Below, in pieces: positions 14,989 to 54,790 of a stretch of DNA of 64,000 nucleotides; position 1 is the first letter of the stretch; every line of letters begins with the position of its first letter. This DNA is from Candidatus Binataceae bacterium (GTDB taxonomy: Bacteria; Desulfobacterota; Binatia; Binatales; Binataceae). The stretch lies in NCBI GenBank assembly GCA_035308025.1, contig DATGHL010000030.1, forward strand, positions 52,946 to 116,945, read 5' to 3'. Made by a program: the position numbers and the translations under genes. A model generated the notes under the pieces. That model was not told the origin of the DNA and searched no databases. It was given only the letters and a program-made list of their open reading frames with translations.

Positions 14989-15933
14989 ATGCCGCAATTT
15001 TCCGTCATCATACCCGCGTTCAACGCGGCCGCCACCATCGCACGCACCGTCGAGTGCGTACTGGCACAAACCTCCAGTGACTTCGAGATCATCGTCGTCG
15101 ACGACGGCTCAACCGACTCGACGCGCGAGGTGCTCGAGCGTTATGCGGCACAGATTAGAATCGTCAGCCAGGCGAATCGCGGCCTCTCGGCGGCGCGCAA
15201 TGCGGGCGCAAGCTTGGCGCGCGCGCGATGGCTCGCCCTGCTCGACGCCGACGATACCTGGACGGCAGACAAGCTCGAGGAAATCGCGCGGGCTCTCCCC
15301 CTCTATCCCGACGCCGTGATGTTGTTCTCGGACGCGATTTGCTTCGACCTGAGCGGGACGATCGCGCACGGCCCCTTCATGCCGCCGCAGCTCGCGCACG
15401 CGCCTTCGCGTGAGGAAATGATGGCCGGGCGCTTCCAGATTCTGCCGAGTTCGGCGGTAATTCGGCGCGACACCTGGGAGCGCGCCGGCGGCTTTTCGGA
15501 GGAGTTTCACGGCGCTTCGGGGTTCGAAGACGCCTGGTTCTGGCTGCTCCTCCGAGAGCAGGGACCCTTCGCCTACCTGCCCGCGCGCTTGGTCAACTAT
15601 CGGGTCGCCCCGCTAATCACTCGACTCGAACGCTACCGGCCCGGCTTCGCGATCTTCACGCGCCTCGTGCGTGAGCGTTACGGCGTCGCCGGGGAGCCAC
15701 TGATCCGGGCGCGGCGCGACGCACGGGTGAGCCTCTGGGCGCGCGCTGGTCTCATCGCGCTGGCTGAAGGGCGCGCAGCCGAGGCGCGCTACGCCTTTCG
15801 CAATGCGCTCCGCGAAAATCCGCAGCGCCTGAAAAATCTGCTGCGGCTCTGCCGAACTTACCTGCCGACAGCGCTCGCGCGCGCACTGACGAAATCAGCT
15901 CGTGACCGGGCCTCGACGGACGAGCCGGAGTGA
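14989..15933 (+). CDS. Glycosyltransferase family 2
   Basis: FSVIIPAFN...VVDDGSTD, with DAD/DXD motifs. Confidence 0.8.
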   Translation: MPQFSVIIPAFNAAATIARTVECVLAQTSSDFEIIVVDDGSTDSTREVLERYAAQIRIVSQANRGLSAARNAGASLARARWLALLDADDTWTADKLEEIARALPLYPDAVMLFSDAICFDLSGTIAHGPFMPPQLAHAPSREEMMAGRFQILPSSAVIRRDTWERAGGFSEEFHGASGFEDAWFWLLLREQGPFAYLPARLVNYRVAPLITRLERYRPGFAIFTRLVRERYGVAGEPLIRARRDARVSLWARAGLIALAEGRAAEARYAFRNALRENPQRLKNLLRLCRTYLPTALARALTKSARDRASTDEPE

Positions 15934-43430: not shown

Positions 43431-45594
43431 CGGTGAACGCGTGCGATCGTCTCGCTCTAGCCTATATCGGCGAAGCTCACGCCCAAAGCGAGCAGTTCGT
43501 TGATCGCCGCGACGGCACGAGCTGAAGCCGCGGTTGTCAAGGCCGGGTCGCGTCGCAGCCATTCCTCGGCGAGGTCGCCAGCGCGCTCGATGAGACGCAG
43601 ATCGCGAATAAAGCGGCCGAACCTGAGCGGCAGGACGCCGGTCTGCCGCAGGCCAAACAGATCGCCCGGGCCGCGCAGGCGCAAATCCAGCTCGGCGACT
43701 TCGTCGCCGCTGGAACTTTGCGTCAAGGCCGCGAGGCGCTCCCGGGCCGGCCCGCGCGCGCCGCGCGAGAGGATCAGGCAGCATCGCGAGGCAACCGCGC
43801 CCCGCCCGACCCGGCCGCGCAACTGATGGAGCTGCGCGAGACCGTAGCGCTCAGCCGCCGCGATGACGATGATCGTGGCTGCGGGAACATCGACTCCGAC
43901 CTCGACCACCGTGGTCGCCACCAGCACGTTGATTTCGCCGTCGCGGAACTGGCGCATCACGCGATCCTTTTCCGCCGGACGCATCCGTCCGTGCATCACG
44001 CCGATTCCGAACTTGCCAAAGCGCCCGGCCAACCGCTTTGCTGCCGTCGCTACGGACGTGGCGTCATCGTCTTCCTCATCATCGTCGATCAGCGGAAATA
44101 CATAGTAGGCGCGCCGGCCCTGTTCAAGTTCCACGCGCACCAGACGATCAACCTCGGCGCTCTCGTCCTCGGTAAATATGGTAGTCGCAACCGGCACGCG
44201 GCCCGCCGGCAATTCGTCGAGGCGCGATACTTCGAGACTGCGCAAGAGCGCCAGCGCGAGGCTGCGCGGAATCGGCGTCGCGGTCATCAGCAGGACGTTG
44301 GCCTCGGCGCCCAGCGCCAGCAGCCGCGCGCGATCGAGCACGCCGAACCGATGCTGCTCATCGATGATCGCGAGGCCCAGCCGCCCGATTCGCACATTCT
44401 CCTGAAACAGCGCGTGGGTGCCGAACGCCACTGCGATGTCGCCGCGGCCGAGAGCGCGGAGGATTCGCGCCCTCTCGGCGCCGCTCAGCCGGCTCGTCAC
44501 CAGTACGCTGCTGACGCCGAGCGCGCCGCAGAGCGCTGTGAAATTGCGAAAATGTTGTTCGGCGAGCAGCTCCGTCGGGGCCATCATGACGGCTTGCCAG
44601 CCGGATTCGGTCGCACGCAGCATCGCGTGAAAGGCGACGAGAGTTTTACCGCTGCCGACATCGCCGATCAGCACGCGGTTCATTTGCGCGGGTCCCGCGA
44701 GGTCCGCGCTGATTTCAGCAATCGCCCCCCGTTGCGCATTCGTGAGCGAAAAAGGCAACGAGGCGATCAGCGCCCCACTCTGCTGGGGCTCGCCGTCGAG
44801 CGGCGCGCCGGCCCGCCGCAGACTGCGCGCGCGATCGCGAGTGAGCGCGAGCTGGAATGCGAACATCTCGTCGAGCGCAAGCGCCTGATGCGCGGGCGTC
44901 GCCGCGCCCTCAAGCACAGCCAGGTCGGCGTCGGGCGGCGGCTGATGGAGATACTTGAGCGCCTCGATTACACGCGGGAGCCCCGTCGTCGACGCTACAT
45001 CGGCCGGGATCGCGTCGAGCTGCGCGCGTTCCGCTTGCGCCAGGCCTTGCGCAACAATCGATGAGAACAGGCGCTGCGGGATCTCCGGCGGGAGGCTGTA
45101 CGCCGGACGAATCGCAGGCGGCGGCGAGGACTTGAGTCGATAGACTTCCGGATGAAGGATTTCGAGCGCCCCGCGCGATGCCGTCGTGACCCGTCCGCAA
45201 ATCAGCACTGTTTCACCGAGCGGCATCCGGCCGTCACCGTGGAGATTGAACCAGGCAACGGCCAGCGTTGCGCCTTCGGCGTCCTTGAGCGTCGCCGTCG
45301 TCAAGCGCCGCCAGCGCATCCCGCGCATCGGCCGGGTTTGCAGCTTATCGAGCGTGCCTTCGACAATTGCAGTTACGCCCGCACGCAGATCCGCGATGCG
45401 ATCGCGCCTGCGCAGATCGTCGTAGCGGCGCGGCAGATGATACAGGGCGTCGAGGAATGTACTGAGACCGCGCGCTTGCAGAATGGCGAGGCGCTTGGGG
45501 CCGACGCCGGCAACTTCGACCAGACTTGCCGCGAGCGCCGCGGACGGCTCGATGCCCGGTGCAGATTTCCCGCGTTCCGGATGGGCCGACTCGC

Positions 45595-48801
<3,207 letters not shown>

Positions 48802-48802
48802 G

Positions 48803-49993
48803 TCAGCCCGATACCGCCTCTGCGGCTGCGACGTGATCGAGCGCTTCGGCGCCGAAGCGCGGAAACGCCTCCACCAGGCGCCGGAAGCGCGCAAACAGGT
48901 GCGCCGAGTCGTGCGGCCCCGGCGAGGCTTCGGGATGATACTGCACGGAGAAAAATGGCGCCCCGATACCGCGCAAGCCCTCAACCGTGCGATCATTGAG
49001 ATTGAGATGCGAAAGCTCGGCGCGGCCGGCGACCGACTCGGCGTCGACGACGAAGCCGTGATTTTGTGACGTGATCTCGACGCGCCGCCTCCGCAAATCC
49101 ATCACCGGATGATTGGCGCCGTGATGGCCGAAGCCGAGCTTGTAGGTTTTGCCGCCGAGCGCCAGCCCGAGCAGCTGATGGCCCAGGCAGATGCCAAAGA
49201 TCGGCCGTTTACCAAGTACTCCTCGAATCGCCTCACAGGCATAGGGCACCGCCGCCGGATCGGCTGGCCCGTTCGACAGAAAAATTCCGTCAGGATTCGG
49301 CGCAAGAATCTCCTCCGCCGTTGCGGAAGCCGGCAGCACTTTCACACGAAAGCCGCTCGCGACCAGCCGCCGCAGGATGTTCCGCTTGATTCCGTAATCG
49401 AGGGCGACGACCAGCGGTGCGTCATCCTGCGCCGTTTGCGCAGACGCAGGATAGCCACGTCCCAGCTCCCAATCCCCAATCTCCCAGGAATAGGATTCGC
49501 TGCAAGTAACTTCCTTGACAAGGTCGCGGCCGATCAGGCCCGGCGACGCCTTCGCCCGTGCTACGAGCTCATCCGCATCAAGATTGACGCTTGAGATGAC
49601 CGCTTCCTGCGCCCCCGCGACGCGAATGTGGCGCACCAGTGCGCGCGTGTCGATCCCGTAGATCCCGACGACTCCCGCTCGTTCGAGATGTTCACCCAGC
49701 GCGCTCTCGGAACGCCAGTTCGACGGTCGATCGATATACTCTCGCACCACGAAGCCCTCGACGAAAACCCGTCGCGATTCGTCGTCTTCAGCGTTGATTC
49801 CGACATTGCCGATCTCAGGGTACGTCATGCAGACGATCTGGCCCTTGTAAGACGGATCGGTCAGTACTTCCTGGTAACCGGTCATCGCGGTGTTGAAGAC
49901 CACCTCGCCGACGGTCTCGCCGATCGCGCCAAAGGCGCGGCCGCGAAACACCCGGCCATCCGCAAGCGCCAAAATCGCCTCGCGCGCGCTCAT
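48803..49993 (-). CDS. carA: Carbamoyl-phosphate synthase small subunit (glutamine amidotransferase)
   Basis: 396 aa. CPSase small-chain N-domain plus a class-I GATase (GICLGHQ). Confidence 0.93.
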
Positions 49994-51363
49994 CAGTGCA
50001 GCCTTCCCACGCGGGCGTCATAGACGATTTTGCCTTCGACGATGGACAGCATCGCCCTTCCCTTGAGCTCCCTTCCAGCAAACGGGGTGTTCCGACTGAG
50101 CGAGAGAAATTTACTCGGATCGACGATCCACGGGTAATTCGGATCGATTACAGTAACGTCACTGCGAGCGCCAGCCGTCAGCCTGCCCGCGCCCTCGAGG
50201 CGAAGCAAGCGCGCGGGATTCAGCGACATCATCTCGACCATCCGCTGCGGCGTGATTAAGCCTTCGTGGACCATCGCGAGCGCAAGCCCGAGCGCGGTTT
50301 CGAGACCGACCACGCCATTTGCAGCAGCCGCCAGGGCTTGCGCTTCATCGGACGACAACCGCCCCCCCCGACGGCTTGCACCAAAGAGCGGCCCCAAAAG
50401 ATTCAACCCCTTCGACATAGAATCGTGTGGCGCGTGATCAGTTGCGATCATGTCGATCGTGCCGTCCGCGATCGCCGCGCGTATCGCGTCACGATCGCGC
50501 CGGCTTCTGAGCGGGGGCGACATGCGCGCGTTTGCGCCGCACTCCAGCACCGCGTCGTCCTCTAGCATGAAATGATGCGGCGTGGCCTCGCAGGTCACGG
50601 CGAGGCCGCGTTGTCGCGCCTCGCGCACCGCCCGTACAGCCTCCGCGGTCGAAATGTGCGCGACATGAACCGGCGCTCTTGCACCCAGCGCGATCTCCAG
50701 ATCTCGCTCCACGCGCGCACTCTCGGCGCCAGACGGGATACCGCGGACACCGAGCCGACGGGCCGTCGCGCCCTCGTTCATGGCGCCATTCGCGGTCAGC
50801 GCGCGGTCTTCCTCGTGCAATGAGATCACAAAGCCCGATGCGGTGACGCTGCGCAGCGCGGTCGCCAGCAGCGCGGCATCGTCGATCGGGATGCCATCGT
50901 CCGAAAACAGCCGGGCGCCCGCCGCGGCCATCGCCGCGACGTCGATCAGTTCGCGTCCTGCGAGTCCCTTGGTCACCGCCGCGACCGGTACGAGGTGCGC
51001 CCCGCCCGCCTGCGCAGCGCGTTCGATCATGTAATGCGTAATTTCCGGGGTATCGTTGACCGGGGCCGTATTCGCCATCGCGGCGACGGTCGTAAAGCCG
51101 CCGGCCGCGGCGGCGCGCAAGCCGCTGAAAATTGTCTCCTTCTCCGGATTACCCGGATCGCGCAGATGAACATGCGGATCAATCAGACCCGGCACGACCC
51201 AACACCCCGCACACTCGATCGTCGTTACGGGTTCCTGCCCCGGCCATCGCGCGATCACTTCCGCAGATGCGATTCGACCGTCGAGCAACAGAAGATCGGC
51301 GACGCCGTCGAAACCACCTGCAGGATCAATAACCCGCCCGCCCTTGAGGAAAATTCCGCTCAT
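49993..51363 (-). CDS. pyrC: Dihydroorotase (amidohydrolase, type I-like)
   Basis: 456 aa. [14 protein letters not shown] metal-binding motif. Confidence 0.88.
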
Positions 51364-53300
51364 CGCACCGCGCGCGCCTCAGTAAAAGGCTCGACCATCG
51401 AGTAAATCACCACGCGATCGGCGAGTTTGCGGCCGTCAGCGCCCGCGGCTTTAAGGCGCACCTGGACGCGCTCGGTCTGCGCAGTCGGGATACTTTTGCC
51501 GATATAATTCGGCCGGATCGGCACTGCGCGATGGCCCCGATCGATCAGCACCGCGAGCTGCACCGACGCCGGACGCCCGTGCCGCCATAACGCCGTCATC
51601 GCGCGTTGCACGGTCCAGCCGCTGTTAATCACGTCGTCAACCAGGACGATCGCGCGGCCATCGACGATAAACCTCCCCCCGCTATCCTCGATTCGGCGCA
51701 AACCGGCGTCGCTCGCATAGACGTCCACCGCGGCGCAGGCCGGGCGCACGCCGGTGCGGGCTTGCACGAGCTCCCGCAATCTCATCGCAAGAATTGCCCC
51801 GCGGCTGATCACGCCGACGATCGCGAGCTGCGCCGGGTCCGCCACGCCGGCCACGATCTGATCCGCCATGGTCTGACAGGCTTGTTCGATTTCGGCCGCG
51901 TTCATCAGCTCGCGCTGCGGGCCTCGCTTGTAAGGCTCGTAGCCTCGCTCCTCCGCCTCTTTAACGGTCTCGAAAACCGCCAGGGAGCCCTCTGCGATCC
52001 ACTGCTGCACGTAGCCGTAGAGATTCTCGTCAAAATGATAGTACCGATGCGCCGTGGCATGGCCGACGTACTCGGCGCGCAGCTCGCGTTCGCAGAGGTC
52101 GCAGCGGATCGCCAATACCGAACGATCAGCCGCTCGCGCCAGTCGGAAGCGCGGAGAAAGATAAGCGGGTTCGTGCCGCGAAATGCAGCCGGCGTTAACG
52201 CAGCGCGGCGCCGCTTCGTGCTTGAACGCGATCAAGGTTTCACGCGCCGCCGGCGGGCGCTCGCGTTGCGCGGTCTCGAGCATCCAGACGATCAGCGCCA
52301 TCCGCACCGGAACCCCGGCCGCAGCCTGCTCGAAATAAATTGCGCGCGGATCCTTGTCGAACTCATAGGCGAGTTCGTCGGTCCGCGGCAGCGGATGCAG
52401 CACGACGGCCTCCTGCGCACGGCTGCTCCGCAGCGCCCGCGCGTCGAAGTGTACGTAAGCTCCCGCAGCGTCGTCCTTGTCCGCGAAACGCTCGCGCTGG
52501 AGCCGCGTGACGTAAAAGGCGTCGAGCGCTGTCGGCGCCGCTACGGAAACTTTCACCAACAGGTCGTCACCGGTAAACAACGCCATCTGATGAGGCCCGC
52601 TGGGTGTGAGGTACAGGGCGTCGAGCGCCCCGGATTTAGAGCGGAGCTCGTCGAACGTGATCGAAGAGGGTGCGTAATCGTGCTCCGCCGCGATCCGTTC
52701 CAGCACGTATTCCGGCACCCCCATCCCGCCGTAAGGCACCGTCACGATATTCGCGCCGAAGCGGGCGAGTGCATAAATCAACGAGTGGACGGTGCGGCCG
52801 AATTTCAGGTCACCGCAAATCGCGACGGTCAGTCCTTTGAGGCGGCCCTTTTTGCGCCGCAGGATATAGAGATCGCACAGCGTCTGCGTCGGATGCTCGC
52901 GGCTGCCGTCGCCCGCGTTAATCACCGGCGCCGCAGCGTATTCCGCCGCCACTCGCGCCGCGCCGTCATTCGGATGGCGCACCACCAACAGGTCGGCGTA
53001 CGCCGACACGACGCGCACCGTGTCCGCGAGGCTCTCGCCCTTCGCCGCCGACGACGCGTGCATATCCGCCGAACTGATTACCGCGCCGCCCAGGCGATGC
53101 ATCGCGGACTCGAAGCTCAGGCGCGTGCGCGTTGACGGCTCATAAAACAGCGTCGCCATGACCAGACCGCTGGCTAGCGTCAGGTTTTGCCCGCGTTCGA
53201 GCGCCGCGGCAAACGTATCCGCGAGTGTGAAGATGCGCTCGATCTCGCCGATCGAAAGATCTTCAATCGAGACCAGATCGTATTTCGGGATACGCGGCAT
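51360..53300 (-). CDS. pyrB: Aspartate carbamoyltransferase catalytic chain fused to a PyrI-type zinc domain and a PyrR-like phosphoribosyltransferase domain
   Basis: 646 aa in one frame. Residues 1-~345 carry the ATCase motifs STRTR, HPTQ and HPLP. Residues ~350-~460 carry CVNAGCISRHEP...RCDLCERE, matching the PyrI zinc domain. Residues ~465-646 form a PRTase domain (VLVDDVINSGWT...LAVLIDRGHRAVPIRPNYIGK) about 40% identical to the adjacent PyrR. Confidence 0.8.
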   Translation of the reverse strand: MPRIPKYDLVSIEDLSIGEIERIFTLADTFAAALERGQNLTLASGLVMATLFYEPSTRTRLSFESAMHRLGGAVISSADMHASSAAKGESLADTVRVVSAYADLLVVRHPNDGAARVAAEYAAAPVINAGDGSREHPTQTLCDLYILRRKKGRLKGLTVAICGDLKFGRTVHSLIYALARFGANIVTVPYGGMGVPEYVLERIAAEHDYAPSSITFDELRSKSGALDALYLTPSGPHQMALFTGDDLLVKVSVAAPTALDAFYVTRLQRERFADKDDAAGAYVHFDARALRSSRAQEAVVLHPLPRTDELAYEFDKDPRAIYFEQAAAGVPVRMALIVWMLETAQRERPPAARETLIAFKHEAAPRCVNAGCISRHEPAYLSPRFRLARAADRSVLAIRCDLCERELRAEYVGHATAHRYYHFDENLYGYVQQWIAEGSLAVFETVKEAEERGYEPYKRGPQRELMNAAEIEQACQTMADQIVAGVADPAQLAIVGVISRGAILAMRLRELVQARTGVRPACAAVDVYASDAGLRRIEDSGGRFIVDGRAIVLVDDVINSGWTVQRAMTALWRHGRPASVQLAVLIDRGHRAVPIRPNYIGKSIPTAQTERVQVRLKAAGADGRKLADRVVIYSMVEPFTEARAVR

Positions 53301-53303
53301 CGA

Positions 53304-53852
53304 CTAAGCCGCCTTCCGTCCGCCGATCACGACCGCGTCCACGCCGTCAATTTCATTCAGCCGGACGTACACGCGCTGACCCTGCGGCGCCGCGATATTC
53401 TTGCCGACGTAGTCCGCGCGAATCGGCACTTCGTGTTCACCGCGATCGATTAGAACCGCGAGCTCGATCGCTTCCGGGCGTCCCAAGTCAGCCAGCGCCG
53501 TCAGCGCCGCGCGCACCGTTCGCCCGGTATACAGCACGTCATCGACCAGGATCACGCGCCGCCCTTCGAGTTGAAACGGCACGTCGCGCCCGATCAATCG
53601 TGGATCGCCCGCAGCGCCGCGACCGTCGTCGCGATAGGATGAAATGTCGAGAGTGCCGACCGGAATTCGCCCCGCCCCGATCTGCGCGAGCGCCTCGGCG
53701 ATCCGGCCCGCCAGCTTGGCGCCCCGCCGCACTATTCCGACGAGTACGATCCGCTCCTGCGCAGTGTTGCGCTCCGCGATTTCGTGCGCGATCCGCCGCA
53801 CCGCGCGCGCGACCGCCTCGCCGTCCATCGCCGTAGCCGCGAAGGCGCTCAC
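53304..53852 (-). CDS. pyrR: Bifunctional pyrimidine operon regulator/uracil phosphoribosyltransferase PyrR
   Basis: 182 aa. VILVDDVLYTGRTVRAAL...LAVLIDRGEHEVPIRADYVGKN. Confidence 0.9.
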   Translation of the reverse strand: MSAFAATAMDGEAVARAVRRIAHEIAERNTAQERIVLVGIVRRGAKLAGRIAEALAQIGAGRIPVGTLDISSYRDDGRGAAGDPRLIGRDVPFQLEGRRVILVDDVLYTGRTVRAALTALADLGRPEAIELAVLIDRGEHEVPIRADYVGKNIAAPQGQRVYVRLNEIDGVDAVVIGGRKAA

Positions 53853-53968: not shown

Positions 53969-54085
53969 CGGCTTAAAAGGCTACGAAGATTTTACCGCGC
54001 GTAGCGGTTCAGTCAATTCATGATTTCTGCGCCGCCGCGAGGTTATTCACAACAGCACTTTGCCGCTGTACGGTGCAGGACTTCG

Positions 54086-54790
54086 CTAGCGCGTCGCGGT
54101 GCGCCGTTCGAGTTTGCGCAGGCGCTGATCCTGATCCCGCGTCTGCACCGTCAGGCGATCGTCGAAACGCTCGAATTTGCGGGTCAGACTGACCAGCGCC
54201 TTGTTGGTCTGCTTGAGCTCGCTGTCAATCTTCTTGACGAGGGCGCTGGACGACGCGGAAATTTCCTCGCGCACGCCCTCCGCGACTGCCGGCAATTCGC
54301 GGGCGAAATCTTTGCGCGCGGAGATCAGCTCTTTACGCAACGTTTCACCCGCCGCAGTTATCTCGCTCTTGAGTTGCGAGCTGGCAGCAGCCGCTCCCGC
54401 CGCGAACTCTTCGGCTACACGCTCGCGGATGCGCACCGCCGAGGTCTCCGCAGTCTCCGTCAGTCCCTGGCGCAGCGCGCCGAGCTGCTCGCGAAACTCA
54501 ACCCGCGTGGCGCCGAGCATCTCGCCGAGCCTGACCATCTCGGCGCCCAGATCGGCGCGAGTCAGCGCGTTAGCTTCGCGATTCTCGGCGATCCGATCGG
54601 AGATAAACCGCACCTGGCGGCCAACCTCGGCAAACTGGCCGACCATTTCACCGCGCACGGCGTCGAGCTTACCGCCGAAGCCGGTCACCGCCTCCAGCAC
54701 AATCTCGAAGCGCGCGCTGAGTTGTTCGAGTAGCACTCCAATGCGGTTAGCCACGTCCTCGCCCACCCGAATCTCCCCTTCCATGTTCAA
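54086..54790 (-). CDS. Coiled-coil hypothetical protein
   Basis: 234 aa, highly helical with heptad-like repeats. Downstream of lepB in the same orientation. Confidence 0.5.
   Translation of the reverse strand: MNMEGEIRVGEDVANRIGVLLEQLSARFEIVLEAVTGFGGKLDAVRGEMVGQFAEVGRQVRFISDRIAENREANALTRADLGAEMVRLGEMLGATRVEFREQLGALRQGLTETAETSAVRIRERVAEEFAAGAAAASSQLKSEITAAGETLRKELISARKDFARELPAVAEGVREEISASSSALVKKIDSELKQTNKALVSLTRKFERFDDRLTVQTRDQDQRLRKLERRTATR

Follow-up and report, generated by a model that had tools for sequence, protein, structure and literature searches.

An aspartate carbamoyltransferase fused to a PyrI-type zinc domain and a PyrR-fold domain: a candidate built-in regulatory arm in the Binatota

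We analysed a 64,000-nucleotide stretch of DNA from Candidatus Binataceae bacterium (GenBank assembly GCA_035308025.1, contig DATGHL010000030.1, positions 52,946 to 116,945 of the forward strand; hereafter the window, whose own numbering is used throughout), in which the pyrimidine operon carries a gene, here called pyrB*, that joins the catalytic chain of aspartate carbamoyltransferase (ATCase) to a zinc domain of the PyrI type and a C-terminal domain of the PyrR fold. ATCase, which catalyses the first committed step of pyrimidine synthesis, is the textbook model of allostery, and for decades it has been understood within three known quaternary classes, A, B and C; the fusion appears to represent a mode of regulation of this enzyme that has not been described before. 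From sequence comparisons we read the 646-aa product as the housekeeping ATCase of the Binatota, the candidate phylum to which the Binataceae belong, with a built-in PyrR-derived regulatory arm docked through the zinc domain, and we put the probability of this reading at slightly below 0.6. The fusion itself is a phylum-wide trait of the Binatota and not a rare one.

The fused protein is encoded by one ATG-started open reading frame (ORF) at 51360..53300 on the minus strand, as a preliminary description of this DNA had reported, and the base composition of the gene is uniform along its whole length. All features located below lie on the minus strand unless marked otherwise. Pfam matched the 646-aa protein with OTCace_N at aa 8-148 (2e-45), OTCace in two stretches, the better at aa 258-340 (6e-17), PyrI_C at aa 366-410 and Pribosyltran at aa 464-615 (3e-14), so that the domains named in the preliminary description were recovered by profile searches. 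The catalytic module occupies aa 1-344 (52269..53300) and scores above curated equivalog cutoffs (285.9 bits against 236.95 for TIGR00670 and 271.5 against 263 for NF002032). Across 150 sequences of the family, S56-R60, K87, R108/H109, H136-Q139, R169, R266/Q268 and H302-P305 are invariant; mapped to E. coli through an alignment with solved ATCases, these are the equivalents of the STRTR motif, the neighbouring-chain Lys, the R/H pair, HPTQ, R167, R229/Q231 and HPLP. By its sequence the module is an intact ATCase that keeps the active-site residues shared between the chains of the trimer, in agreement with the complete catalytic chain described earlier. Among solved structures it comes closest to the PyrI-partnered enzymes of M. 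jannaschii, P. abyssi and E. coli (4e-78 to 5e-67), and the unregulated ATCase of the B. subtilis type scores just 3e-33; similarity of this kind assigns it to the PyrI-partnered (class B) lineage.

The aspartate domain carries a family-specific insertion (aa ~222-258, 52527..52637) that the preliminary description did not mention. This part of the domain is about 51 residues long, compared with about 16 in solved ATCases, which leaves some 35 extra residues immediately before the aspartate-binding motif TR.Q.ER. The insertion has a motif of its own, DA.YLTP..PHQ.ALFT, with 80-100% conservation that extends to fusions of only about 40% identity, and judged by this conservation the insertion is a signature of the entire fused family. 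In the predicted structure of the fused protein, which was computed as a single chain (mean predicted local distance difference test score, pLDDT, 81.9; predicted template modelling score, pTM, 0.76), it forms an extra strand (227-233) and a helix (236-242) followed by a low-confidence loop. The insertion also resembles a local duplication of the strand before the aspartate-binding motif, with ALDALYLTP... followed by ALDAFYVTRLQRER about 32 residues on. An AlphaFold2 prediction from a multiple sequence alignment of Binataceae only gave a pLDDT of 67.7, and a Foldseek search with that model matched ATCases alone.

From the end of the ATCase module to the zinc domain there are only about 20 variable residues, the linker (aa 345-362, 52215..52268) differing in length and sequence across the family, and no Pfam match to the PyrI allosteric domain was found in the fused protein at E <= 1, which bears out the earlier statement that this domain is absent. 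The zinc domain (aa 363-412, 52065..52214) carries cysteines C367, C372, C400 and C403, all invariant in 150 sequences, with N369 and E377 conserved in at least 96%. Over the whole protein PyrI_C narrowly missed its cutoff of 23.4 bits, with a score of 23.1, and it reached 26.7 bits when the segment was scanned alone; it was matched in all 28 family members tested. When the family profile was compared with the PDB, the 12 best matches were ATCase regulatory chains, the sole matches below E = 0.1, and the best of them was to E. coli PyrI residues 104-150 (E = 7e-6). The preliminary description had drawn a PyrI-like segment of about 100 aa; the PyrI zinc domain is indeed present, but it accounts for only about 50 aa of that segment, and the rest is a separate extension of about 50 aa, a conserved family signature that, like the insertion, had gone unremarked.

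The extension (aa 413-462, 51915..52064) has no assigned family: no Pfam family and no PDB chain matched it. It is predicted to fold as beta-beta-alpha-beta-alpha with a mean pLDDT of 81-91 for the block, and G413, W434 and F443 are invariant (150 sequences). It is the most constrained of the non-catalytic modules, with a nonsynonymous rate (dN) of 0.13, equal to that of the ATCase domains, and a ratio to the synonymous rate (dN/dS) of 0.056. Two origins for it were considered and rejected. The motif AVF.S.KEAEE.GYEPYK resembles the N-terminal domain of Ada, but hhalign gave this relationship a probability of 7.9% across 20 columns, and Ada chains were absent from the PDB profile matches up to E <= 10. 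Descent from the PyrI allosteric domain was discarded because the profile matches PyrI at residues 104-150 only.

The C-terminal domain (aa 463-620, 51441..51914; phosphoribosyl loop VLVDDVINSGWT, LAVLIDRGHRAVPIR) belongs to the PyrR fold. It aligns to nearly the full length of PyrR (residues 5-170 of 181 in 1ufr, 1e-26) and is 38% identical to the stand-alone PyrR encoded next door (182 aa, 53304..53852, from the ORF listing and NCBIfam), a homology recognised in the preliminary description. The neighbour is a canonical PyrR, as had also been said, with 203.1 bits against a cutoff of 138 for the equivalog model NF003549, whereas the fused domain remains below all curated PyrR cutoffs (131.2 bits against 138 for NF003549, the best, and 121.6 against 230, 110.8 against 218, 94.8 against 140 and 76.2 against 268 for the other PyrR models). 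It is followed by a variable C-terminal tail of low pLDDT (aa 621-646 plus stop, 51360..51440), the stop of which overlaps the pyrC start in ATGA.

To compare the two kinds of domain, we placed 73 stand-alone PyrRs taken from the loci and 113 fused domains in one alignment, numbered after B. subtilis PyrR (sequence identical to 1a3c). The stand-alone proteins keep R15, K18, R19 and R27, an invariant YRDD and the loop DDVLYTGRT. In the fused domains the equivalents of B. subtilis R15, T18, R19, H22 and R27 are variable or acidic, and those of R141, R146 and K152 are retained; T18, R19, H22, R27, R141, R146 and K152 are the residues that Savacool and Switzer are said to have assigned to RNA binding in 2002. 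The net charge of helix alpha-1 is -3.0 in the Binataceae fusions, -2.2 in other distant clades and -0.6 in the P0158 clade (150 sequences), against +1.6 in the 73 stand-alone PyrRs. Because the basic positions of this helix have become variable or acidic and its net charge negative, binding of RNA by the fused domain appears unlikely.

The ligand pocket presents a different pattern of loss and retention. Type I phosphoribosyltransferases (PRTases) bind the ribose 5-phosphate moiety through a DD...TG.T loop. The Binataceae fused loop reads DDVINSGWT against DDVLYTGRT in PyrR, with only the DD...G.T core kept, and the YRDD flexible loop is absent from these domains, which have variable sequence and a deletion of about 7 residues at that place. 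D555, D556, G561, T563 and R591 are invariant in all fused clades, down to 38% identity. The P0158 clade kept YRDD and GRT and lost DRGH, and thus different clades degraded different motifs. With YRDD lost in the Binataceae and DRGH lost in the P0158 clade, PRTase catalysis in the fused domain seems to be under no selection. The P0158/P0291 clade, which looks low-GC, keeps YRDD without DRGH, so the PyrR-like domain may work differently there.

The architecture is common to at least 230 clusters (90% identity; cluster counts throughout are lower bounds from the matches listed) in NCBI, JGI, ENA and Logan, 38-84% identical and alike in length, domains and domain order. A search with the window protein gave at least 120 clusters, 69-100% identical and nearly all of 644-662 aa (one is a partial sequence); those listed all have the ATCase and PRTase domains, and PyrI_C was called in most. 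A search with a divergent member added at least 119 further clusters of 635-673 aa that are 38-50% identical to the window protein. In a scan of one genome per species there were 142 candidate genomes, 80 of which were inspected and proved almost all to be Binataceae or Binatus. In 73 of 78 species-level loci a single ORF runs without interruption through the ATCase and PRTase domains, and the frameshift that the preliminary description had named as a possible source of error does not account for the fusion. In the other five (L003, L020, L027, L040 and L057), several of them 'MFD' assemblies whose contigs are very long, the gene is split into two ORFs, probably by indel errors and not by real gene fission. 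A protein identical to that of the window is on record from a Candidatus Binataceae metagenome-assembled genome (MAG), on a 225-kb contig. Across the modules dN/dS ranges from 0.06 to 0.35, highest in the linker (0.35) and 0.30 in the C-terminal tail, ratios that are approximate since dS is near saturation; every module of the fused protein is under purifying selection.

We also looked at candidates for a wider or looser distribution. Matches of 157-330 aa that resembled stand-alone genes for a zinc-PRTase regulatory chain were rejected as truncated gene calls, most of which (P0121, P0126, P0145 and P0212) start at a Met inside the C-terminal helix of the ATCase (MAL[IL]...); P0260, of 514 aa, belongs to a cluster of 643-aa proteins and carries a frameshift. 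One locus, L086 (GCA_035559995.1, DATMAM010000030.1; 250 kb), is labelled Candidatus Acidoferrales (Acidobacteriota) and reads pyrR-pyrB*-carA-carB-recG-aminotransferase, a gene order that it shares with L084 and L085, both Binatia loci. The explanation is either an error in the MAG label or binning or a transfer of the entire block, and we claim no spread beyond the Binatota. The carriers labelled 'Trinickia', 'Thermodesulfobacteriota' and 'Methylomirabilis' are likewise unconfirmed MAG labels. In a tblastn search against plasmid records, matches were confined to the PyrR portion of ordinary pyrR genes.

These features suggest the following course. A class-B ATCase would have kept its zinc docking domain, lost the CTP/ATP-binding domain and gained a duplicate of PyrR, which was freed of RNA binding and, in the Binataceae, of uracil phosphoribosyltransferase (UPRTase) catalysis while its phosphoribosyl-ligand pocket was retained. 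By analogy with PyrI in E. coli ATCase, the zinc domain would dock the arm onto the catalytic chain; the PyrR-derived domain may then bind a 5-phosphoribosyl ligand (UMP, UTP, GMP or phosphoribosyl pyrophosphate, PRPP) in its invariant loop, and occupancy could be relayed to the active site via the extension, the zinc domain and the insertion, which lies beside the aspartate-binding Arg/Gln. The conserved extension and insertion would be the natural candidates for signal transmission. PyrR proteins self-associate as dimers, and PyrR entries in the PDB contain 2-6 chains; because of this self-association, two catalytic trimers could be linked by pairs of PyrR-like domains, much as they are by PyrI dimers, in a (c-Zn-PyrR)6 particle that would be the counterpart of the c6r6 holoenzyme. 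Such feedback on the enzyme would, in the Binataceae, operate in parallel with attenuation at the RNA level by the free, RNA-competent PyrR encoded just upstream.

Several observations weigh against this picture of a regulatory arm. The Arg-to-Trp change fixed in the Binataceae phosphoribosyl loop could alter or abolish nucleotide binding. E404 and R405, the equivalents of the E. coli PyrI interface residues E142 and K143, are conserved in the Binataceae but vary in the distant clades. In the fused protein the sensor lies on the C-terminal side of the zinc domain and in PyrI the allosteric domain lies on the N-terminal side, so the E. coli geometry cannot simply be copied. The roles of the RNA-binding residues and the dimerisation of PyrR are, moreover, taken from the literature. 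The preliminary description had a PyrR-type sensor replacing the PyrI nucleotide-binding domain; this is the best-supported reading, but the replacement is no like-for-like swap, the sensor standing at the opposite end of the zinc domain.

The same degraded features would suit an arm that senses nothing. The zinc domain, extension and PRTase domain could form a ligand-blind scaffold for the assembly or stability of a higher-order ATCase particle, in the way of Pseudomonas PyrC', and it would fit such a role that the catalytic and RNA-binding features of PyrR are degraded, differently in each clade, that the extension and not the PRTase domain is the most constrained element, and that the Arg-to-Trp change is fixed in the Binataceae. 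A scaffold would, however, hardly explain why D555, D556, G561, T563 and R591, the ligand-binding core of a type I PRTase, are invariant to 38% identity, and we regard it as unlikely.

An enzymatic role for the C-terminal domain fares worse. PyrR proteins have UPRTase activity, and NCBIfam names them 'bifunctional ... uracil phosphoribosyltransferase PyrR'; a fused domain active as a UPRTase would couple pyrimidine salvage to de novo synthesis, and the retained core of the PRPP loop, together with the YRDD and GRT of the P0158 clade, is consistent with this. Yet the YRDD loop is lost and about 7 residues shorter in the clade of the window, the clade with YRDD lacks DRGH, all curated PyrR and UPRTase models stay below their cutoffs, and the invariant PyrI zinc domain would be left unexplained, which makes a bifunctional enzyme quite improbable in our view.

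Further down the scale, the fused PyrR-like domain may also pair with free PyrR, the enzyme thereby titrating the RNA attenuator. The two are 38% identical and have a common fold, and the self-association interface may be retained; we consider such heterodimers a long shot. If they do form, the nucleotide status at ATCase would set how much free PyrR is available to terminate transcription of its own operon, a direct protein-level link of allosteric and transcriptional control in one pathway.

Control at the level of RNA is probably the job of the separate stand-alone PyrR with its own leader. A putative PyrR-binding leader RNA (RF00515; 53888..53983) with a binding loop, a GC-rich hairpin and a U-run precedes pyrR, and immediately 5' of it stands a sigma-70-like promoter, TTGACT-16-TAAAAT (53989..54016; 10/12 matches, 0.1 expected in shuffles). 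The RF00515 match spans the full model at 44 bits against a gathering score of 54 (E = 0.0018). The hairpin, GCGACCGGCCGC...GCGCCGGUCGU followed by UUUUU, is present in the centroid fold; a terminator scanner missed it, its apparent loop exceeding the scanner's 8-nt limit. Four of five other loci have this element immediately 5' of pyrR (L084 at 54.6 bits, which is at gathering, L004 at 45.3, L011 at 38.2 and L001 at 36.4), and none of 11 Binataceae loci reached the RF00515 gathering score. The binding-loop segment CGAGGGC is also paired, in the minimum free energy and centroid folds, with GCCCUCG farther downstream, immediately ahead of the ribosome-binding site of pyrR; this pairing could, in these models, form an alternative antiterminator or translational structure.

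That the fused domain itself still binds pyr leader RNA, the ATCase polypeptide regulating its own operon, is very improbable. Such moonlighting would accord with the retained equivalents of R141, R146 and K152 and with the divergent fusions in L081 (7450-9438) and L083 (1344-3314), which have no adjacent stand-alone pyrR; but helix alpha-1 is acidic, no fused clade has kept the basic residues at 15, 18, 19, 22 and 27, the operon also encodes an RNA-competent PyrR that has a leader of its own, and no PyrR-type leader was detectable in L081 or L083. An assembly or annotation artefact, with a frameshift or a chimeric contig joining pyrB, pyrI-like and pyrR2 genes, is refuted by the conservation across assemblies: against the 5 split ORFs in 78 loci stand 73 continuous ones from independent species-level assemblies, the at least 230 clusters of the same length and domains from four sources, the identical protein on a 225-kb contig, and the truncated nature of every apparent stand-alone zinc-PRTase protein.

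The operon runs from the promoter and PyrR leader through pyrR, pyrB*, pyrC and carA to carB, and its tight coupling was correctly noted in the preliminary description, pyrR and pyrB* being separated by a gap of 3 nt, pyrB* and pyrC overlapping by 4 nt (ATGA) and pyrC and carA by 1 nt. The order of pyrR, the fused gene, pyrC and carA is the same in all 80 loci as far as the contigs extend. Downstream of pyrB*, pyrC (49993..51363) encodes a dihydroorotase of 456 aa (Pfam Amidohydro_1 and DHOase) with its metal motif visible in the translation, carA lies at 48803..49993 (CPSase_sm_chain and GATase) and carB at 45595..~48800 (start approximate; CPSase large-chain domains). In the Binataceae (the window and L001-L080) pyrC sits between pyrB* and carA; in L084, L085 and L086, of another Binatia clade, there is no pyrC at that position and pyrB* overlaps carA directly. 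The helicase gene recG (43457..45625; RecG_wedge, DEAD, Helicase_C and RecG_dom3_C) follows carB directly with a short overlap here and in L084-L086, and therefore the pyr-car-recG block is kept across Binatia. Weak Rfam matches to Ysr141, a Yersinia small RNA, at 44464..44733 on the plus strand and at 15257..15516 on the minus strand of L084 (22 and 33.5 bits; gathering 196) fall inside recG and most likely reflect a conserved helicase coding segment and no RNA gene. Just upstream of the pyr promoter, a 234-aa ORF (54086..54790) overlaps a long ORF on the opposite strand and is of uncertain coding status; its sole similarity is to apolipoprotein-type helical repeats, below threshold (27 bits against a cutoff of 90).

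Among known ATCases, the fused protein is most readily compared with the class B holoenzyme of E. coli and archaea (PyrB6-PyrI6). It is of the same catalytic lineage, its zinc domain is homologous to PyrI 104-150 with the four Cys, and it too would presumably be a regulated enzyme with its sensor tethered through that domain. It differs in lacking a separate regulatory chain and the CTP/ATP-binding domain of PyrI, in a sensor of the PyrR fold that is attached to the zinc domain at its other end, the C-terminal one, and in the added 50-aa extension and insertion of about 35 aa. Covalent joining of ATCase and regulatory chain has a precedent in the fused PyrB-PyrI proteins (NF009916 / PRK13376, 'bifunctional ATCase catalytic subunit/regulatory subunit'), but the window protein scores 76.6 bits against the NF009916 cutoff of 800, over aa 11-204 only, and has the PyrR-fold domain in place of the PyrI allosteric domain. 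Class A ATCase of Pseudomonas needs an inactive dihydroorotase-like PyrC' for its assembly, and the likeness here would be that of a degraded pyrimidine-pathway protein recruited as an obligatory ATCase partner; however, that partner has a different fold and is unfused, the pyrC of the window keeps its metal-binding motif, and the window ATCase is far from the Aquifex enzyme that forms a complex with dihydroorotase (3d6n_B, 3e-21). Free PyrR, an attenuator and UPRTase, differs from the fused domain in that the latter is attached to an enzyme, has an acidic alpha-1, has lost YRDD and has GWT for GRT. In B. subtilis PurR and haloarchaeal GfcR, PRTase-fold sensors control DNA-binding domains; the presumed output here is an enzyme.

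All the parts are already known, as is the principle of tethering a sensor to ATCase via the PyrI zinc domain, and what is new is the identity of the sensor, its position and the accompanying extension and insertion. We found no description of this fusion in full-text literature searches or in the Binatota genome paper, and no curated NCBIfam model covers the fused architecture. The novelty claimed in the preliminary description stands to that extent, but the fusion is not rare and is already present in databases under inconsistent names ('aspartate carbamoyltransferase catalytic subunit', 'phosphoribosyltransferase family protein', 'PyrR' and 'hypothetical protein').

If our reading of a PyrR-derived regulatory arm is true, this phylum-wide, strongly selected form would constitute a further regulatory class of ATCase, in which the PyrI zinc anchor was kept and the nucleotide-binding domain replaced by one that descends from the RNA regulator of the same pathway. 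Nature would here have exchanged sensor modules on a fixed docking domain, a natural experiment, and the reading predicts another effector logic, with UMP, UTP, GMP or PRPP as effectors rather than CTP and ATP. A duplicate of PyrR would have moved from regulating RNA to regulating an enzyme, with the original copy staying in the same operon. The Binatota are abundant, uncultured bacteria of soils and sediments, and so the fusion bears on the annotation of their nucleotide metabolism.

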